A DNA stretch of 13,842 nucleotides, taken from NCBI GenBank assembly GCA_964447635.1, contig CAYUUC010000072.1, positions 1-13,842 on the forward strand, read 5' to 3'. Below the pieces are notes generated by a model. That model was not told the DNA's origin. It ran no database searches and saw nothing but the letters and a program-made list of their open reading frames with translations. A program made the translations under genes and the position numbers. This DNA is from an uncultured Spirochaetia bacterium (GTDB taxonomy: Bacteria; Spirochaetota; UBA6919; CAYUUC01). Position 1 is the stretch's first letter. Every line of letters begins with the position of its first letter. This document shows positions 994 to 13,655 of this stretch, one piece after another.

Positions 994-1752
994 ATGTTTG
1001 ACTGGTTTTACGATTTATCCGTTTTAGAAAAAGTTTTCTGGGTTATAGCTTCCGGTTTCTCTGTGATTTTCCTAATACAATTAATATTAACATTTATTGG
1101 TATTGGAGGGGCTTCTGATGCTGAGATTGATACTGATATAGGTACTGACTTTGATACCGATGTCGATGTAGGAACGGATGTCGATGTGGACACCGATGTT
1201 GATATGGATGCTGATGTAGGAGCAGATGCTGATATGGGAGCAGATGTCGATACAGATGTTGATGTGGATGCGGATGCAGACCACCCCCATGTTAATGATT
1301 CGGATATGACTGACTATGACCGCTCCAAGACCAGCCGTAAGCGAAGGTTTAAGCTATTGACCTTCCGAGGGATTGTGGCTTTCTTTATGGTTTTCGGCTG
1401 GGCAGACATCATAGCGAAGAATTCTGGTATGAACACTCTCAATTCTGTTTTGATTGCCTCAGCGATGGGATTAGGGATGATGTTCTTAATATCGCTAATC
1501 TTCTACTTCCTACTGGGTCTAACTGAGAGTGGCAATATAGACATCAGAAATGCGGTAGGCTCTACAGGGAAGGTCTACTTGCCCATTCCAGCCGAGTCAC
1601 AAGGCTTTGGTAAGGTTCAAATCATTGTTCAGGGTGCAGTAAGAGAGATGGATGCGATAACCATTGGAGAAAGGCTCCCTACTGGAACTAATATCCGAGT
1701 TATCGGAATAGTTAAAGGTAAACTTTTGGTAGAAGAAATGGAAAAAAAATAG
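994..1752 (+). CDS. YqiJ/NfeD-like inner-membrane protein (N-terminal TM segment, poly-acidic D-X repeat linker, further TM helices, C-terminal OB-fold domain)
   Basis: ATG at 994 is preceded by GAGGT at 984-988. Hydrophobic N-terminus (VFWVIASGFSVIFLIQLILTFIGIGG). Acidic DxDxD tract, two more TM helices, then a C-terminal beta-rich region (GKVYLPIPAESQGFGKVQIIVQGAVREMDAITIGERLPTGTNIRVIGIVKG) typical of the NfeD/YqiJ OB-fold. A flotillin gene lies immediately downstream, as in the yqiJK / yuaF-floT pairs. Confidence 0.7.
   Translation: MFDWFYDLSVLEKVFWVIASGFSVIFLIQLILTFIGIGGASDAEIDTDIGTDFDTDVDVGTDVDVDTDVDMDADVGADADMGADVDTDVDVDADADHPHVNDSDMTDYDRSKTSRKRRFKLLTFRGIVAFFMVFGWADIIAKNSGMNTLNSVLIASAMGLGMMFLISLIFYFLLGLTESGNIDIRNAVGSTGKVYLPIPAESQGFGKVQIIVQGAVREMDAITIGERLPTGTNIRVIGIVKGKLLVEEMEKK
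1117..1284 (+). repeat. Imperfect tandem hexanucleotide coding repeat (GAT-GTN / GAT-GCN / GAT-ACN) encoding (Asp-[Thr/Val/Ala/Met/Gly])n, ~28 units
   Basis: The DNA reads gatactgatataggtactgactttgataccgatgtcgatgtaggaacggatgtcgatgtggacaccgatgttgatatggatgctgatgtaggagcagatgctgatatgggagcagatgtcgatacagatgttgatgtggatgcggatgcagac. Translation is DAEIDTDIGTDFDTDVDVGTDVDVDTDVDMDADVGADADMGADVDTDVDVDADAD. Confidence 0.8.
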
Positions 1753-3313: not shown

Positions 3314-3700
3314 TCATTTTAATCCCAACATTTTAAGTAAGGATTCCAGTAAACTATCATTACTGGTTGGGTTTGGGGATTTTTGTTTTTTCTTTCTGGA
3401 GTTTTGTCTTTTTTTCGAATTAGTTCTTAATGCTTTCCTGATTGGTGGTTTAGTCTTTTTTGACTGATGTGATGCTTTCTTCTTCCTGCTGTTTGGTCTT
3501 GGTTTTAGTTCGGTGGGGAAAATCTCATCGGATAAGTTTTCCCTGTTCTTCAGGTCTCTTCTATAGCGTTTGATAATCTTTAGCCATTCATCGGTCGTTT
3601 TCCTCTCACCATTGGTGAACACATCAAACAAAGCATTCTTGATATAGCGTGGCATGTGGCTCCAGATGAACCGCCATGCACCATCGGGAGTTTTTTTTTA
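3314..3700 (-). pseudogene. Out-of-frame (-1) continuation of the PIN-kinase gene: conserved-looking kinase C-lobe helices followed by a Lys/Arg-rich tail. It is contiguous with the kinase ORF only if the A9 run is read as A10 or A8.
   Basis: Minus-strand frame after the homopolymer reads KKTPDGAWRFIWSHMPRYIKNALFDVFTNGERKTTDEWLKIIKRYRRDLKNRENLSDEIFPTELKPRPNSRKKKASHQSKKTKPPIRKALRTNSKKRQNSRKKKQKSPNPTSNDSLLESLLKMLGLK, with stop at 3314-3316. A TAA stop in this frame sits immediately 5' of the A-run (3698-3700), so the two halves join exactly at the homopolymer. Confidence 0.6.
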
Positions 3701-5046
3701 CGGTCTTTTCCATACGGGTATGAAAACTCAGTTCGTTTGATGTTGGTTGCAGGGTCACTTCCTCCACGTTTGGAATAAGGAGGCTTCCCCGGCATCAGTA
3801 TCATGAAAACCAGTGTAGAAACAGCGAAGTATTCATGCTGGAATGTTCTCAATGTCCGTTTATAGTCCTTACCTTGAAGCTCAGGAGGAGTATAGTTCAC
3901 CGTCCCCACCGGACAGGGGTATGCCTCTATCTGGAAGCTGTCTGTATCTACGAAATAGACCTCGTGTTCGTCTTTGACTAATATGTTAAGCGGATTTATA
4001 TCACCTATGATAATGTTTCTCATGTGTAGTTGCTTAATCATCCTAAGTATGTTGATACATAAGGTCAATAGGTTCAATCTTGTCCAGCCTGGGAAGGTCT
4101 TAAACAGCAGAGGCTTAATGAACAATGACTTCTGCAACTCCTTACCTGATGCCTTATTCATAAGATAGCCCACAAAGTCCCCTTTGTTATTGTAAACCAT
4201 CTCTATTGGCCAGCATATCCCTTTATAGTCAACGGGATTGGTCAGCATAAGGGTAATCTTATCCCGTTTTATGGTTGTGAGTTTGCTCTTCTTATAAACT
4301 TTACAAGCGAATCCAGTATCCGTAGAGTAAACAGATCCTTCACCCCCTTTGCCTATCTCCTTGGTTAATCTATGGTAAGTCTTTTCCCCGGTTTCATCCT
4401 TCGTATATACCGTATCATTTATAGAAGGGATACCTGATACTTTTAGATAATGCTTTTTATCGAAATTAACAGGCTTTTTACATAGTTTGAATGTTTTAAC
4501 AGGTTTGCTTATCTTCGCTGGATGCTTGCTAAGAGACATCTGTTTACCGACTGTCCCGGCGAGTAGTTCTTCTGCTGAGGTTTTACTTTTGATACGGAAA
4601 GCCTTAAACTCTTTCTTGCCGTTCACGCCTACATCTTGCCTTAACTTGAAGATACTTTTTACCAATGCCCTATTTTGTGTTATCAGGCATAAATCGTATT
4701 TATATGTAAGGTCGATACTCAGTTTACAGAACAAGTCATTAAGATGCGGGTCATTCTTATCACCGACTATCTCGGCACACTTCTCCCTAACTAATGACTT
4801 CAAAAGTTGGAGTGCCTTTTTAGATTTAATGGATTTGGTTTGTTCTTCACCGGCTTCCATTTTGCGAAGGTCTTCCACTAATCGATAAGGGATTACCAGC
4901 TTATTGCTGTGCTTCTTTAAAAATTCAGCGAAGAATCCTGATAAAAATCCTTTAGCGGATTTATGAGTTATGCTGGTTATATCTAGTAGCAATTTGTATT
5001 CTGAGGCTATTTTTTCGATGTCTATGGTATTTTTTAAATCATCCAT
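3580..5046 (-). CDS. PIN-like domain + Hanks-type Ser/Thr protein kinase domain protein. This is the reading frame as it stands, and it very likely terminates artificially after the A9 tract.
   Basis: N-terminus has a PIN-like motif pattern: YKLLLDITSI (beta1 Asp), LVIPYRLVEDLRKM (conserved Glu), LITQNRAL. Kinase motifs: Gly-rich loop IGKGGEGSVYS, beta3 Lys in ACKVYKK, catalytic loop IIIGDINPLNILV (D...N), Mg-binding VYFVDTDSF, activation-segment end GTVNYTPPELQ, then GKPPYS. Beyond the KKK codons at 3691-3699 the frame encodes a Cys/Met-rich 36-aa tail (LPMVHGGSSGATCHAISRMLCLMCSPMVRGKRPMNG) that does not look protein-like. Confidence 0.75.
   Translation of the reverse strand: MDDLKNTIDIEKIASEYKLLLDITSITHKSAKGFLSGFFAEFLKKHSNKLVIPYRLVEDLRKMEAGEEQTKSIKSKKALQLLKSLVREKCAEIVGDKNDPHLNDLFCKLSIDLTYKYDLCLITQNRALVKSIFKLRQDVGVNGKKEFKAFRIKSKTSAEELLAGTVGKQMSLSKHPAKISKPVKTFKLCKKPVNFDKKHYLKVSGIPSINDTVYTKDETGEKTYHRLTKEIGKGGEGSVYSTDTGFACKVYKKSKLTTIKRDKITLMLTNPVDYKGICWPIEMVYNNKGDFVGYLMNKASGKELQKSLFIKPLLFKTFPGWTRLNLLTLCINILRMIKQLHMRNIIIGDINPLNILVKDEHEVYFVDTDSFQIEAYPCPVGTVNYTPPELQGKDYKRTLRTFQHEYFAVSTLVFMILMPGKPPYSKRGGSDPATNIKRTEFSYPYGKDRKKKLPMVHGGSSGATCHAISRMLCLMCSPMVRGKRPMNG
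3691..3699 (-). repeat. A9 homopolymer (T9 on + strand) in coding sequence, coinciding with the frame break of the kinase gene. Candidate slippery site A_AAA_AAA.
   Basis: + strand ...gggagtttttttttacgg.... The minus-strand codons read cgt aaa aaa aaa ctc in the upstream frame. Confidence 0.9.
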
Positions 5047-5117
5047 AATAATGCTTTAAGTCTATACGAAGATTTGCTTTTTGATATAATAATAAATATC
5101 ATAAATATATACAACAT

Positions 5118-5143
5118 TTTTACCAAAAAATATTCTTTGGTAA
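5118..5143. promoter_or_regulatory. Perfect 9-bp inverted repeat with 8-bp spacer, TTTACCAAA-aaatattc-TTTGGTAAA, in the divergent promoter region between the kinase and phosphoesterase genes
   Basis: Read directly from the sequence. The arms are exact reverse complements and contain G/C, which is notable in an otherwise AT-only spacer region. The location is consistent with a dimeric transcription-factor operator controlling one or both divergent genes. Confidence 0.4.
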
Positions 5144-9693: not shown

Positions 9694-10950
9694 TCATATA
9701 TATTTAATTGATATAATGGTATAGTCATCAGCCTGGTCTTTATTATGGTCCATAAAGTCTTTTAAGGTGGATTCTATATAGCTAGATAGAGTTTCTGGTG
9801 TCTGATTTATACATGATTCGGTAGTCTTAATAAGCCTTTCCTCGCCGAACATTTCACCTTTATGGTTACTGGATTCCGTTACCCCATCCGTATAAAGGAA
9901 TATAATATCCCCTTCATATAAGTCTTCTTCATGCTGTTCATACATGTGACCTTCAATAGCCCCAAACAAAGGATCATTACCCTTCAAAAATTTAGAACTA
10001 CCATCACTTTTAACCAATATGGGAGGATTATGTCCAGCATTGGTAAAATATAACTTATGATTTCTTATGTCTATCAAACCATAGAAGAATGTACAAAACT
10101 TCTTACTCTTCGTGAAAGCAACAACAGTATTGTTAAGAATATTACACATCTCTTTGGTAGAGGTTATCGCCTTGGACATAGTGCTGAATAATGCCATCAC
10201 TGTAGACATAATGAGAGCAGCAGAAACACCTTTCCCGGAAACATCTCCTATAGCCACCCCAACAGTATGATCATTAAACTTGACGAAATTGTAAATATCC
10301 CCGCTAACCTGATAATATGGTTTATAGATAATGGATGCACATAGATTATTTATCGAGGGGAAAGTCTCCGGTAGAATCATCCTCTGGACTTCGGAAGCCA
10401 TCATCATATCACGCTTAAGCATCTTGTTTCTTAGCTCCATCTTGTGTAGGTAATGGTTCTCCACAGCAATAGCTGCGGGTACAGCCAGTGCTTCCAAGAA
10501 CTGGGCATCTTCATCAGTAAAGCCCCTCGGTTTATTCATAAGCTGGATAACGCCGATAATTTTACCATTATAATTCTTCATAGGAACGGTGCATAGGTTT
10601 TCAGTATGTCCACCAATCTTCTTATCGATATCTGATGAGAACCTATTATCGGAATAAGCATGATTGGTTATTATCCTTTCACCAGTCTTGGCACATGTAC
10701 CCGAGACTCCATTCCCAATATCCATTTCAATGGTTTCTAGCCTGGGATCATCCATAGCTGCTGAATAGATAGTCTGTTTTTCTTCATCGATGAGGTATAT
10801 GGTGCAAAATTGTGCGTTGAGGTTCTGGGTTGCTGATTTACGGAATGTTTCCAGGATTTCTGGAAGGTCGAGTTTAGTATTTACAACCTTTGATATTTCA
10901 ACCAGGGATTCTAGTTGATATATTTTTTCTTGAAGTTTCTTTATTTCCAT
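9694..10950 (-). CDS. GAF-domain-containing PP2C-type Ser/Thr phosphatase (SpoIIE/RsbU family)
   Basis: N-terminal coiled-coil plus GAF region. The C-terminal PP2C/SpoIIE domain has metal-binding aspartates in GDVSGKG, YTDGVTE and DDYTII. AAGG SD before the ATG at 10950. It lies 101 bp downstream of the histidine kinase on the same strand. Confidence 0.85.
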   Translation of the reverse strand: MEIKKLQEKIYQLESLVEISKVVNTKLDLPEILETFRKSATQNLNAQFCTIYLIDEEKQTIYSAAMDDPRLETIEMDIGNGVSGTCAKTGERIITNHAYSDNRFSSDIDKKIGGHTENLCTVPMKNYNGKIIGVIQLMNKPRGFTDEDAQFLEALAVPAAIAVENHYLHKMELRNKMLKRDMMMASEVQRMILPETFPSINNLCASIIYKPYYQVSGDIYNFVKFNDHTVGVAIGDVSGKGVSAALIMSTVMALFSTMSKAITSTKEMCNILNNTVVAFTKSKKFCTFFYGLIDIRNHKLYFTNAGHNPPILVKSDGSSKFLKGNDPLFGAIEGHMYEQHEEDLYEGDIIFLYTDGVTESSNHKGEMFGEERLIKTTESCINQTPETLSSYIESTLKDFMDHNKDQADDYTIISIKYI

Positions 10951-11051: not shown

Positions 11052-13655
11052 TTAAATATTTTGCATAAACTCAATGGTAAATTTTGTACCTTTATCGCTA
11101 TCAATACTAAAAGAGCCTTTTAATCTTTCCTCGACTAAACTCTTAGCTATCTTAAGACCAAGAGAGTTCAGATTGTTAATATTCAAATCTTGTTTTAATC
11201 CTATACCATCATCAGATATTATTAGAGAATATAAATATTCTTTATTTTTTAATGGTATATTTTTATCATCCTGTTGATTCTCAGGTTCTCTTTTAAAGAA
11301 CTCTATCTTAATATTACCTTTATTATCGGGGAAAGCATATTTTAAAGAATTGGAGACTAATTCGGTAATAATTAATCCACATGGTATTGCTAATCCTACA
11401 TCCAAAAATAGATTACTAACCAATATCTCTCTATTAATCTTTCCATACTTACCATAAGAATAAAAGAGACTATCGACCAGGTTCTTTATATACTCACCAA
11501 AATTAATCTTCTCTGAGGTTTCTGAGCTATACAGATTTTCATGTATTATTGACATAGACTTTATTCGATTCTGACTCTCCTTAAAGATTTGCTTAATCTT
11601 TTCATCATTTATGTGTAGAGATTGAATACTCAATAGGCTTGCTATAACCTGTAGATTGTTCTTAACCCTATGATGGACTTCCTTTAGCAAGGTCTCTTTT
11701 TCTTTCAACAGCGATTTCAGCTTCTCTTCAGCCTGTATCCTAGCTGTTATATCCTCCACTATTGTGGCGAAGAAGCCATCCTTCAAGCTGTAAGCATATA
11801 TAGAGAGCCATTTATTGAGGGGTCTGATGAATTGTTCGAATCTTACTTCCTCGCCTTTTAATGCCACATCTCCAAAAACATTGACCCAGTTCTTTTCCGG
11901 AGTATTGATGATATGAGTAAAATCTACTAAGGCTTTTTTACCGATGAAATCCTTCTTCTCTCCTTCCATTATCCGTTCAAAAGCCCGGTTAACCTTTAGT
12001 ATAATATAATCGACGGGTTTATTATTGTTATCAACTATAATTTTATTATAAGCAAAACCATTAATCATGTTGGTAAATAAAGAACGATACTTATCCTCGC
12101 TTTGTTTCAATTCATCTTCAGAATGCTTCCTTTCTGTTATATCCTCACAGATACATATACCACCGTGGATTTCTCCATCTTCGTCTATTATCGGATTAAA
12201 CATGGCTTTTAAAATAGCCGATTTTTTAGTTATAACGGATTTATAGAAACCTTCAAAGGTGGACTCTTTACCTTCTAAACATTGCGTCACAGCCCCTTTC
12301 ATTTCGGGATTGTCTATCATGCTAATTATATTAAAGCCGGAATATGTCTTTTTCCCGGTAGAAAAAGTATTAATGAAGGCATCATTAAAATGGGTTATGT
12401 ATCCATTACTATCAAAGCGGAAGATACCGATTGGCGACCTTTCAAATATTGCCCGGTATTTCTTCTCTGAGTTTCTAAGGATGGTTTGTGTCTTGGCTAG
12501 TTTAGTGATATCCTGTCCTGATATTAATAAACCGATAGGTTGGTTATTATGGTCTTTTAGTAAGGTGCTTTTCCAATCGATTATCTTCTTGTTACCGGTT
12601 TTATCGTATATATAACTATTTTCCAGTTCATATACTGAAGATTCCATCGATAATTTCATATTAAATGAATCCCTCATTTTACCTCTTATTTCTTCTGGAA
12701 TAAAGTCATTATAGAGGTTCTTCCCGATGATGTCTTCTTCTCTAAATCCTAAAATCTCACATCCTTTTCTGTTAATCATGGTTATACTGCCTTCAGTATC
12801 GGTGGTTAATAGTATCACTTCGGCAATGTCAAGATATTTCTGGGCTTTATCCCTCTCTTCTTTTATGATTTTCTCTGAGTTTAACTTTTCGGTGATATCG
12901 TTTATTAAAGCTATATACCCGATTAGTTCTCCGTTATCATTTCTCTTATAATTCCAATTTACCTGAACATATATAGACTTACCGGATTTGGTTACATTCT
13001 TTAATACAAAATGCTGTGGGGAAGGTTGCTTGAGAGTATAATACTTGAATCTCCTATAGAACTCATTCTTTAATCCATGGTTATCGATTAATCCATATAT
13101 CTCCTTACCTAAAAGCTCTTCCGGTTCAAAACCGAAAATCCTAGTGGTTCCTTGGTTAATAAATGTAATGATAGCTTTTGTATCACATTCTATGATACCT
13201 TGTGGGATGGTTTCAAACAGGGTCTTGTATCTTTTTTCGCTTTCCCGCAAGCGATATTCCTTTTCTATAAGTTCCTTATCCCTATTATGGTTGTATAGAG
13301 CCAGTTCAATCGTTGTATATAAGGCTTTTCGTTCATAAGGTTTGATGATATAGCCATATGGTTTGGTTAATTTTGCTCGATTGAAGGTATTATCATCGGT
13401 ATGGGCTGTAAGGTAAACCACTGGTATGTCATATTTATTCTGAATGATGGAAGCAGCATTGATGCCATCAACTTTACCCTTAAGCATAATATCCATTAAT
13501 ATCAAATCTAATTCATTATCGGAAACGATATTTAGGGCTTTCTCACCGGTGGTTATTATATCTACAATCTCATAACCAAATTCTACCAATGTATCTTTCA
13601 AATCTTCTGCTACGATTAGCTCATTCTCTACTATCAATAATTTAGGTTGGCTCAT
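11052..13655 (-). CDS. Hybrid sensor histidine kinase: N-terminal receiver (REC) domain, four PAS/PAC domains, HisKA_2-type dimerisation/phosphoacceptor and HATPase_c domains
   Basis: REC: LLIVENE...LILMDIMLKG...KPY. PAS cores: YKTLFETIPQGIIECD, LDIAEVILLTTDTEGSITMINRKG, YRAIFERSPIGIFRFDSNGY, YRSLFTNMINGFAYNKII. H-box EVHHRVKNNLQVIASLLSIQS (HisKA_2 signature). N-box ELVSNSLKYAF, G1 ISDDGIGL, G2 GLGLKIAKSLV. Confidence 0.9.
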   Translation of the reverse strand: MSQPKLLIVENELIVAEDLKDTLVEFGYEIVDIITTGEKALNIVSDNELDLILMDIMLKGKVDGINAASIIQNKYDIPVVYLTAHTDDNTFNRAKLTKPYGYIIKPYERKALYTTIELALYNHNRDKELIEKEYRLRESEKRYKTLFETIPQGIIECDTKAIITFINQGTTRIFGFEPEELLGKEIYGLIDNHGLKNEFYRRFKYYTLKQPSPQHFVLKNVTKSGKSIYVQVNWNYKRNDNGELIGYIALINDITEKLNSEKIIKEERDKAQKYLDIAEVILLTTDTEGSITMINRKGCEILGFREEDIIGKNLYNDFIPEEIRGKMRDSFNMKLSMESSVYELENSYIYDKTGNKKIIDWKSTLLKDHNNQPIGLLISGQDITKLAKTQTILRNSEKKYRAIFERSPIGIFRFDSNGYITHFNDAFINTFSTGKKTYSGFNIISMIDNPEMKGAVTQCLEGKESTFEGFYKSVITKKSAILKAMFNPIIDEDGEIHGGICICEDITERKHSEDELKQSEDKYRSLFTNMINGFAYNKIIVDNNNKPVDYIILKVNRAFERIMEGEKKDFIGKKALVDFTHIINTPEKNWVNVFGDVALKGEEVRFEQFIRPLNKWLSIYAYSLKDGFFATIVEDITARIQAEEKLKSLLKEKETLLKEVHHRVKNNLQVIASLLSIQSLHINDEKIKQIFKESQNRIKSMSIIHENLYSSETSEKINFGEYIKNLVDSLFYSYGKYGKINREILVSNLFLDVGLAIPCGLIITELVSNSLKYAFPDNKGNIKIEFFKREPENQQDDKNIPLKNKEYLYSLIISDDGIGLKQDLNINNLNSLGLKIAKSLVEERLKGSFSIDSDKGTKFTIEFMQNI

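Follow-up and report, generated by a model that had tools for sequence, protein, structure and literature searches.

A PIN-kinase gene of uncultured Spirochaetia split between two reading frames at a conserved run of nine adenines

The window analysed here is a 13,842-nt stretch of DNA from an uncultured Spirochaetia bacterium (assembly GCA_964447635.1, contig CAYUUC010000072.1). It carries a minus-strand gene for a protein with an N-terminal PIN-like domain, a protein kinase core and a basic C-terminal tail, and this gene is spread over two reading frames (Table 1). The zero-frame open reading frame (ORF) opens with the ATG at 5046 and ends at 3580, and is overlapped by a second minus-strand ORF in the -1 frame (3314–3655, 113 aa). 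One additional A at a run of nine A's (A9), or a -1 shift at the same place, joins the two ORFs into a continuous sequence of 577 aa, and either event creates the junction KKK-TPDGAW, which is conserved in the family. The predicted junction peptide of the full-length product is DRKKKTPDGAWR. Directly 5′ of the run the -1 frame has a TAA stop codon, so that the frames can be joined only by a shift inside it. The window contains no ambiguous bases, and the A9 run is its sole homopolymer of at least nine bases. The motifs and frames described in an earlier reading of this DNA (the original prediction) were all found where it had placed them. That reading treated the frame break as something to be repaired; the comparisons below show a conserved A9 run instead, a probable recoding site and the most interesting feature of the locus.

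Table 1. Features of the PIN-kinase gene and its surroundings in the window.
Feature	Coordinates	Strand	Details
Whole PIN-kinase gene	3314..5046	minus	577 aa over two frames (0, then -1); stop codon 3314-3316
Zero-frame ORF, 488 aa	3580..5046	minus	native residues 1-452 plus 36 out-of-frame residues; product of standard decoding
Slippery run, nine A's on the coding strand	3691..3699	minus	CGT AAA AAA AAA CTC CCG; 0-frame heptamer A_AAA_AAA
-1-frame continuation, residues 453-577 and stop	3314..3691	minus	remainder of kinase C-lobe, basic linker, C-terminal helix
PIN-like domain, residues ~8-160	4567..5025	minus	D22, E58/D59 and D99 present; family D103 and D125 replaced by N103 and N125
Kinase domain, 0-frame part, residues ~213-452	3691..4410	minus	GKGGEG, K249, GD349INPLN354, D367-T-D369, PPE389
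Kinase domain, -1-frame part, residues 453-514	3506..3691	minus	helices 457-464, 467-477 and 485-501; aligns to YegI up to YegI residue 321
Lys/Arg-rich disordered linker, residues ~515-563	3359..3505	minus	pLDDT <50; occupies the position of the family zinc ribbon
Conserved C-terminal amphipathic motif NDSLLESLLKMLGLK	3317..3358	minus	helix 566-573
Weak sigma-70-like promoter match, TTGGTA-17-TATGAT	5098..5126	minus	52 nt 5′ of the ATG; not above chance

The kinase domain is encoded on both sides of the A9 run. Pfam Pkinase (PF00069) matches residues 228–439 with 37.4 bits (cut-off 31.7). The full-length model has a pLDDT score (predicted local distance difference test) of 88.9 and is confident except in a linker at 167–178 and the tail at 528–564; used as a Foldseek query, it retrieved eukaryotic-type kinase structures with E ~4e-10 and a target-normalised TM-score (TMt) of up to 0.73. 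Residues G234-G235-E236, K249, D349, N354, D367 and D369 are invariant in an alignment of 114 family sequences, and all are kept in the window protein. By sequence and model this is a Hanks-type kinase, as originally proposed, with a bilobal fold and a complete set of catalytic residues, and it is predicted to be active. Residues 453–514, downstream of the run, comprise three helices, all confidently modelled, and include the family-invariant P454, G456, W458, W462, K470 and F477 together with the near-invariant R482 and W488. Judged by its likeness to subdomain XI of Hanks kinases, this part is probably needed, and the 488-aa product, which does not contain residues 453–514, is probably an inactive or unstable kinase.

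The six sequences closest to the window protein (53–100% identity) form a clade with 200/200 bootstrap support in a neighbour-joining tree. Four of them (P0001, P0002, P0005 and P0006, at 100%, 70%, 57% and 53% identity to the window protein) end in the same shifted frame just after 'RKKK'. The remaining two, P0003 and P0004, read through and are full-length homologues that can be aligned with the 577-aa product from end to end. At the DNA level, the window and the loci L001 (70% amino acid identity), L002 (57%) and L003 (53%) share CG[T/A] AAA AAA AAA CTC C at one corresponding codon, and many synonymous differences surround the site in these four frameshifted genes. The run and the frame offset are identical in L001, L002 and L003, as they are in three strains of the window species (L086, L088 and L089), which differ from window positions 3314–5046 by 1–6 single-nucleotide polymorphisms (SNPs) and no indels. 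The frame break noticed earlier is thus reproducible, all four independent same-species assemblies having A9.

The A9 run is peculiar to the frameshifted genes. In the two in-frame clade genes the run is broken (AGT AAA AAT and AAA AAG AAA GAT). Among the family genes from GTDB in which both flanking motifs were found, 58 of 58 are in frame, with 117 nt between the motifs compared with 116 nt in the window, and the longest A run at the slip position is A7. The in-frame length A10 was never observed, and neither A10 nor A11 occurs in any of these 6 clade and 58 family genes. Searching proteins with the -1-frame C-terminal region, a short and low-complexity query, returned two split ORFs only, and the DNA pattern of the slip site had no match in viral contigs. 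Three truncated proteins (P0275, P0351 and P0369) were considered as additional frameshift cases and rejected, as each follows the conserved kinase frame to its end and has no out-of-frame tail.

In a sequencing or assembly artefact the true tract would be A10, under-called as A9, and the gene would be a normal ORF without any frame break. Some platforms often misjudge the length of homopolymers, and such a platform may have been used here, but we regard this explanation as very improbable. Seven assemblies, independent of one another and drawn from four sources (JGI/NCBI; Logan ERR1878617 and SRR32473247; ENA ERR2407578; three NCBI MAG projects), agree on A9. Other A8/A9 runs in the window and L001 contigs are in frame, including an A9 within the L001 PIN-kinase gene itself, which makes a general homopolymer artefact unlikely, and neither the window (13.8 kb) nor the L001 locus (17 kb) contains another broken gene.

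The sequence downstream of the run is maintained as protein. In four species the repaired -1 frame reads TPDGAWRFIWSH[M/L]PRYIK…LSDEIFP…LKPR, followed by a basic linker and a terminal motif; its first 12 residues (453–464) are the conserved TPDGAWRFIWSH. Over the 68 codons downstream of A9 the proportion of nonsynonymous differences (pN) is 0.07–0.23, against a proportion of synonymous differences (pS) of 0.73–0.97 (Nei–Gojobori, four species); over the 68 codons upstream the corresponding values are 0.06–0.14 and 0.67–0.93. Low downstream pN at saturated synonymous divergence indicates that the -1 frame has been translated throughout that divergence, and this frame is under strong purifying selection. 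A SNP at nt 1418 of the gene in a same-species strain leaves Leu473 of the -1 frame unchanged but replaces Cys by Tyr in the 0 frame, which is modest independent evidence that the -1 frame is the one in use. The 0-frame tails past A9 vary in length from ~12 to 39 codons in the four species and are not independently conserved.

These observations bear on the possibility of a decaying pseudogene or a gene fission, in which the frameshift is disabling, function resides in the 488-aa product at most, and the downstream ORF is not translated or is made separately. Gene callers do annotate two ORFs, and the loss of partner genes, zinc ribbon and PIN acidic residues described below can be read as decay. 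Nevertheless, decay or fission has very little probability in our view, given that constraint is as strong in the -1 frame as upstream of the run, that invariant kinase residues (P454 through F477, listed above) are encoded beyond the run, and that no further stops or indels are present downstream in the four species. The variable 0-frame tails and the nt-1418 SNP point the same way. Independent initiation is impossible in L002 and L003, which have Leu, a non-start codon, at the position of window Met465 and no ATG, GTG or TTG before residues 453–464. Re-initiation, or a kinase split into two subunits, was rejected on the same ground.

We consider it reasonably probable that the locus encodes a cytoplasmic PIN-kinase of the YegI / TerY-P type, belonging to an orphan clade, that reaches full length only through slippage at A9. 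Standard decoding would halt 36 codons past the run and yield the 488-aa protein, without the last three helices of the kinase C-lobe. In a fraction of transcripts RNA polymerase would add one A at the A9/T9 run, giving the 577-aa kinase by programmed transcriptional slippage, and ribosomes slipping by -1 on A_AAA_AAA may contribute. Runs of A9/T9 are established sites of productive transcriptional slippage: at the A9 of Thermus thermophilus dnaX about half of the product is affected, the longer product of Shigella mxiE requires one extra base at a T9, and many insertion sequence (IS) elements slip likewise (PMC1088944). The window gene resembles dnaX, mxiE, Citrobacter rodentium tssM and the IS elements in having A9 at the junction of overlapping frames, and resembles mxiE and tssM in that a longer functional product would require one non-templated nucleotide (PMC1088944, PMC4256274). 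It differs from them in gene class, being a kinase, and in coming from uncultivated organisms. The literature searched yielded no earlier case of recoding in a kinase of the Hanks or YegI type.

A sub-variant of this explanation is pure -1 programmed ribosomal frameshifting (PRF), the mechanism of E. coli dnaX, with no share for RNA polymerase. The heptamer A_AAA_AAA is known to make ribosomes slip by -1 and is listed among PRF motifs (PMC3711429); the 0-frame sequence [A]A AAA AAA fits the X_XXY_YYZ pattern perfectly, and re-pairing at -1 yields exactly the KKK-TPDG junction. However, no conserved hairpin, pseudoknot or Shine-Dalgarno-like stimulator was found near A9 in the four species, where 45 nt upstream plus 70 nt downstream were folded and compared with shuffles (z-scores -0.8 to +1.1) and a GGAGG-like element upstream was sought by eye. 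Moreover, nine A's exceed what PRF needs, and in many bacteria runs of this length are where slippage in transcription begins to be efficient (PMC1088944). A purely ribosomal mechanism is therefore unlikely, and we infer that the transcriptional route dominates, since slippage at A9 needs no stimulator.

The main rival is that of a phase-variable contingency gene, whose tract changes length in the DNA itself, A9 being OFF and A10 ON, so that the kinase is made only in a switched subpopulation. Poly-A/T tracts are hypermutable via slipped-strand mispairing, a recognised cause of conserved frame transitions (PMC3711429, PMC1088944), and the family relatives at L084 and L085 adjoin restriction or defence genes, a class in which phase variation is common. 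On the other hand, eight consensus sequences, among them those of four strains of the window species and of three other species, uniformly show A9, and there is no tract-length polymorphism among the window, L086, L088 and L089, all of them consensus sequences in which minority alleles are invisible. A permanently OFF majority would hardly keep downstream pN/pS far below 1 at saturated synonymous divergence, and an A9 template is expected to give some full-length product by transcriptional slippage anyway. Phase variation consequently seems to us an improbable account of the frame break.

The N-terminal region had been read originally as a PIN domain with a possibly degenerate active site (TQN in place of TxD). 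PIN_4 scores 15.6–19.5 bits on the window domain, a weak match below the cut-off of 21.9, and 32 of 37 homologous N-terminal domains match PIN_4 at E ≤ 0.01 (best 1.8e-8), and others match PIN_12 or PIN_9. A sequence search of the PDB with an N-domain profile gave insignificant PIN matches only (E 0.1–2), so the question was settled by fold search: the domain has a three-layer α/β/α fold with a parallel β-sheet that matches solved PIN domains, among them Utp23, SMG5 and Nmd4, and the assignment to the PIN fold stands. The PIN_4, Fcf1-Utp24 and SMG6-type PIN domains are among the closest known systems.

Five acidic PIN residues (D22, E59, D99, D103 and D125) are each at least 90% conserved in the 114-sequence alignment. 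The acidic metal-binding set of active PIN domains is incomplete in the window domain, which has N103 and N125, and the family sequence T123-Q124-D125 carries N or S at position 125 in 6/6 clade members, in agreement with the degeneration suspected earlier. Because two conserved acidic residues of the family are lost, the domain most likely binds rather than cuts. Judged by what is generally known of PIN active sites and by comparison with Utp23, SMG5 and Nmd4, it is probably non-catalytic.

The combination of PIN and kinase domains had been taken for an undescribed or rare architecture, which the wider searches contradict. A search of 5.8 billion proteins gave 1622 matches; most of the best 120 span ~88% of the query, PIN region included, and come from Bacillus, Clostridium, Thermoflavimicrobium, Sorangium, Desulfobacterales and others, and many of these carry PF13638 (PIN_4), PF00069 and PF13451 (zinc ribbon). 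In an exhaustive profile search, 1871 clusters (50% identity) reached E ≤ 1e-30, and most of the best 150 matches run from PIN through kinase. Scanning GTDB species genomes with the family alignment located 163 loci, none of them from the window clade. The 80 of these that were retrieved, on which the flank counts rest, represent Bacillota, Myxococcota, Desulfobacterota, Campylobacterota, Spirochaetota, Planctomycetota and Pseudomonadota. Clustering of flanking ORFs showed that the kinase is followed on the same strand by a gene of ~228 aa in 75/80 loci (median gap 32 nt), assigned by Pfam to VWA, and then by one of ~265 aa in 70/80, assigned to PP2C_2. The VWA partner has 42% identity to E. 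coli YegL, and E. coli yegI is close to pphC and yegL, with yegJ intervening in K-12.

This gene content is that of the TerY-P or yegI-yegL-pphC triad, which has already been described, as relayed in PMC11090510 and PMC4978471. According to these sources, which cite Anantharaman et al. 2012, the triad consists of a TerY-like VWA protein, a PP2C phosphatase and a Ser/Thr kinase, usually with a C-terminal zinc ribbon, and it is discussed there as a phosphorylation switch tied to stress and defence systems. Most kinases of the wider family likewise have C-terminal CxxC zinc ribbons (PF13451). No description of an N-terminal PIN domain on a triad kinase was found in the triad literature, Anantharaman et al. 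2012 itself not being covered.

The kinase domain is homologous to that of YegI over its whole length. Window residues 213–514 align with YegI 7–321 by hhalign (probability 99.6%, E 9.7e-25, 294 columns, 31% identity), and the alignment crosses the slip site. K249, D349 and the D367/D369 motif align with YegI K39, D141 and D159, positions named in bioRxiv 10.1101/819920, and the two proteins share the same divergent motifs (a GD.N catalytic loop and D.DSFQI). YegI has been shown experimentally to be an active Ser/Thr kinase, divergent motifs notwithstanding (bioRxiv 10.1101/819920). N354 aligns to Ser in YegI, so that the window protein keeps a catalytic-loop Asn that YegI does not have. YegI is a two-pass integral membrane protein without a PIN domain; the window protein, in contrast, has a PIN domain, no transmembrane segment, and a polybasic linker and terminal amphipathic helix of its own, and its gene has no VWA or PP2C neighbour and requires a frameshift. 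Partial copies of the window kinase bear a JGI name with the label COG4248.

Defence-system searches gave no support to the toxin or abortive-infection role suggested originally. Against PADLOC-DB 2.0 the window protein had generic kinase-domain matches only (PD-T4-6, MkoA, Stk2 and mad6; best E 1.5e-7), as did the triad kinase P0018 and YegI; of the family partners, VWA had no match and PP2C one weak, unrelated match. In the TerY-P-like system whose anti-phage action has been validated (Gao et al. 2020), the kinase is an OB-fold one, unlike the window protein.

Some members of the wider family show further variation. Campylobacter gastrosuis (NZ_JANURM010000001.1) has two PIN-kinase copies (L058 and L059) ~210 kb apart with equal match lengths and scores, which may belong to a duplicated element. 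In P0263 (1364 aa), P0282 (1226 aa) and P0291 (1147 aa) the PIN-kinase module follows an N-terminal extension of ~480–570 aa, and P0067 (758 aa), which has an IF2_N-like (PF04760) match, carries a shorter one. Several GTDB loci (e.g., L014, L028 and L044-L046) have unusually long match spans, which suggest insertions.

The window clade differs from the triads in having neither a VWA gene nor a PP2C gene nearby and no zinc ribbon. Searches (tblastn) with 83 VWA queries found no match in the window, L001-L003 or L084-L086, and PP2C_2-type genes had no match in the same loci. In L088, VWA and PP2C are absent among the called genes of a region reaching ~10 kb to one side, taken from a 29.7-kb contig. 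The nearest and sole PP2C-superfamily gene in the window is a GAF-SpoIIE gene, 4.6 kb from the kinase. The earlier description of a stand-alone gene is thus borne out for this clade, at least within the flanks available. The count of CxxC motifs after residue 480 is 0 in the window protein, P0003 and P0004, compared with 2–8 in 89/114 family members. The window gene is an orphan among the PIN-bearing triad kinases of the YegI / TerY-P type, with no zinc ribbon and probably no nuclease activity. What sets it apart from known triad kinases is the conserved A9 run, a probable recoding site; the fusion itself is not a new architecture.

A location in a variable island, which had also been suggested, is not supported. 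The PIN-kinase proteins of the window and of L001 are 70% identical, and the two loci share the same housekeeping neighbourhood: response-regulator/PAS histidine kinase, GAF-SpoIIE, pyrB, pyrI, pyrD, pyrK, secreted Metallophos, kinase, flotillin, an unknown ORF and fatty-acid desaturase. This synteny argues against a mobile island. The unknown ORF, between the desaturase and flotillin genes, encodes 252 aa without a Pfam match (window 994–1752, plus strand; L001 11316–12053; L088 4140–4898); it is conserved in both species and ends directly after an A8 run (1742–1749). On the other side, the GAF-SpoIIE phosphatase and a response-regulator/PAS/HisKA_2 hybrid histidine kinase (9694–10950 and 11052–13655, minus strand) adjoin pyrBI-pyrDK and are syntenic in L001; no link of this pair to the PIN-kinase is evident. 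The closest named relatives of PyrD are from Cloacimonadota metagenome-assembled genomes (MAGs) at ~63% identity, with some Spirochaetes and Ignavibacteriales, which allows a tentative placement at most. One of the samples is a microbial mat.

The in-frame sister genes (L084 2086–3183; L085 255–1001) have defence-like neighbours, unlike the housekeeping context of the window gene: P0003 is followed after 46 nt by an N6_N4 DNA methyltransferase, and P0004 has an RloB-family protein upstream. Expression signals around the window gene are inconspicuous. The promoter scan gave 4 sites where 6.7 are expected from shuffles, the terminator scan was likewise not above chance, and no Shine-Dalgarno-like sequence was found upstream of the ATG at 5046 (5047–5130, minus strand). 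Such an absence would suit a member of the FCB group and is loosely in line with the Cloacimonadota-like relatives of PyrD.

The polybasic C-terminal tail noted in the original prediction lies wholly in the -1 frame. The last 57 residues contain 20 K/R and 2 D/E (pI 11.9), and the tail is predicted to be disordered apart from the short C-terminal helix NDSLLESLLKMLGLK. The terminal amphipathic motif recurs in the family, in Bacillus as …VLDRVINVLKRFNK, in Sorangium as …WDSLRDLFKL and in others as …SLLDRLIDFLSNI, and the hydrophobic moment of the last 18 residues is greater than that of a linker control. MinD and FtsA have C-terminal amphipathic helices that target them to membranes. The window protein resembles them in having a short terminal amphipathic helix after a basic flexible linker and has no sequence homology to them in this tail; by analogy, linker and helix may tether the kinase to anionic membranes. 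The basic linker may equally well bind nucleic acid, in place of the zinc ribbons. The second ORF as a protein entry (P0140; 3314–3655, minus strand) carries the JGI label 'chromatin segregation and condensation protein Rec8/ScpA/Scc1 (kleisin family)', a label that is almost certainly spurious and derived from the Lys/Arg-rich, low-complexity tail.

If slippage operates at A9, it would set the amount of active kinase, an inherent brake or ratio-setter for an enzyme that is otherwise without opposition. The evolutionary reason for such a brake is speculative: low, fixed expression could offset the loss of PP2C and VWA, the presumed restrainers or gates of triad kinases. That obligatory A9 slippage is an evolved device, fixing a low ratio of full-length, tail-anchored kinase to truncated product and replacing the lost phosphatase and VWA partners, is a tentative proposal to which we give somewhat less than even chances.

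Several points weigh against the slippage explanation as a whole. The occurrence of slippage is deduced solely from sequence, and the lack of a conserved stimulator weakens its ribosomal version. The neighbour-joining tree does not unite the frameshifted genes in one clade, P0003 joining the window and L001, so that the frameshifted state is either ancestral with two reversions or of repeated origin; it has been retained either way. Frameshifted genes come from four species only, two of them (L002 and L003) represented by single assemblies, and, as said, a platform prone to homopolymer errors may have been used. Consensus assemblies cannot show switching of the DNA tract length in a minority of cells. 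Lastly, four of the clade contigs are only ~2–4 kb long (the window is 13.8 kb and the L001 locus 17.5 kb), and VWA/PP2C partners could lie elsewhere in the clade genomes.

The PIN-kinase is the kinase of a widespread and experimentally untouched branch of YegI / TerY-P cassettes, with ~1900 clusters in many phyla, and its PIN domain points to RNA and so offers a handle on what the triads sense. Having lost the partners, the zinc ribbon and PIN catalytic residues, the orphan variant can help to establish which parts of a triad kinase work on their own. Few cellular genes outside mobile elements depend on programmed slippage, and the locus is a well-supported candidate for joining them, with a clean prediction: transcripts with A10 and a peptide spanning the KKK-TPDGAW junction. 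Were the frameshift merely tolerated and rescued by polymerase infidelity, the locus would show that such a state can persist for a long time under selection in free-living bacteria. If the proposed regulatory role is true, this would be the first recoding event in a bacterial Hanks/YegI-type kinase, as far as could be found, and kinase output could rise when the fidelity of transcription or translation drops, e.g., under stress or during phage takeover.

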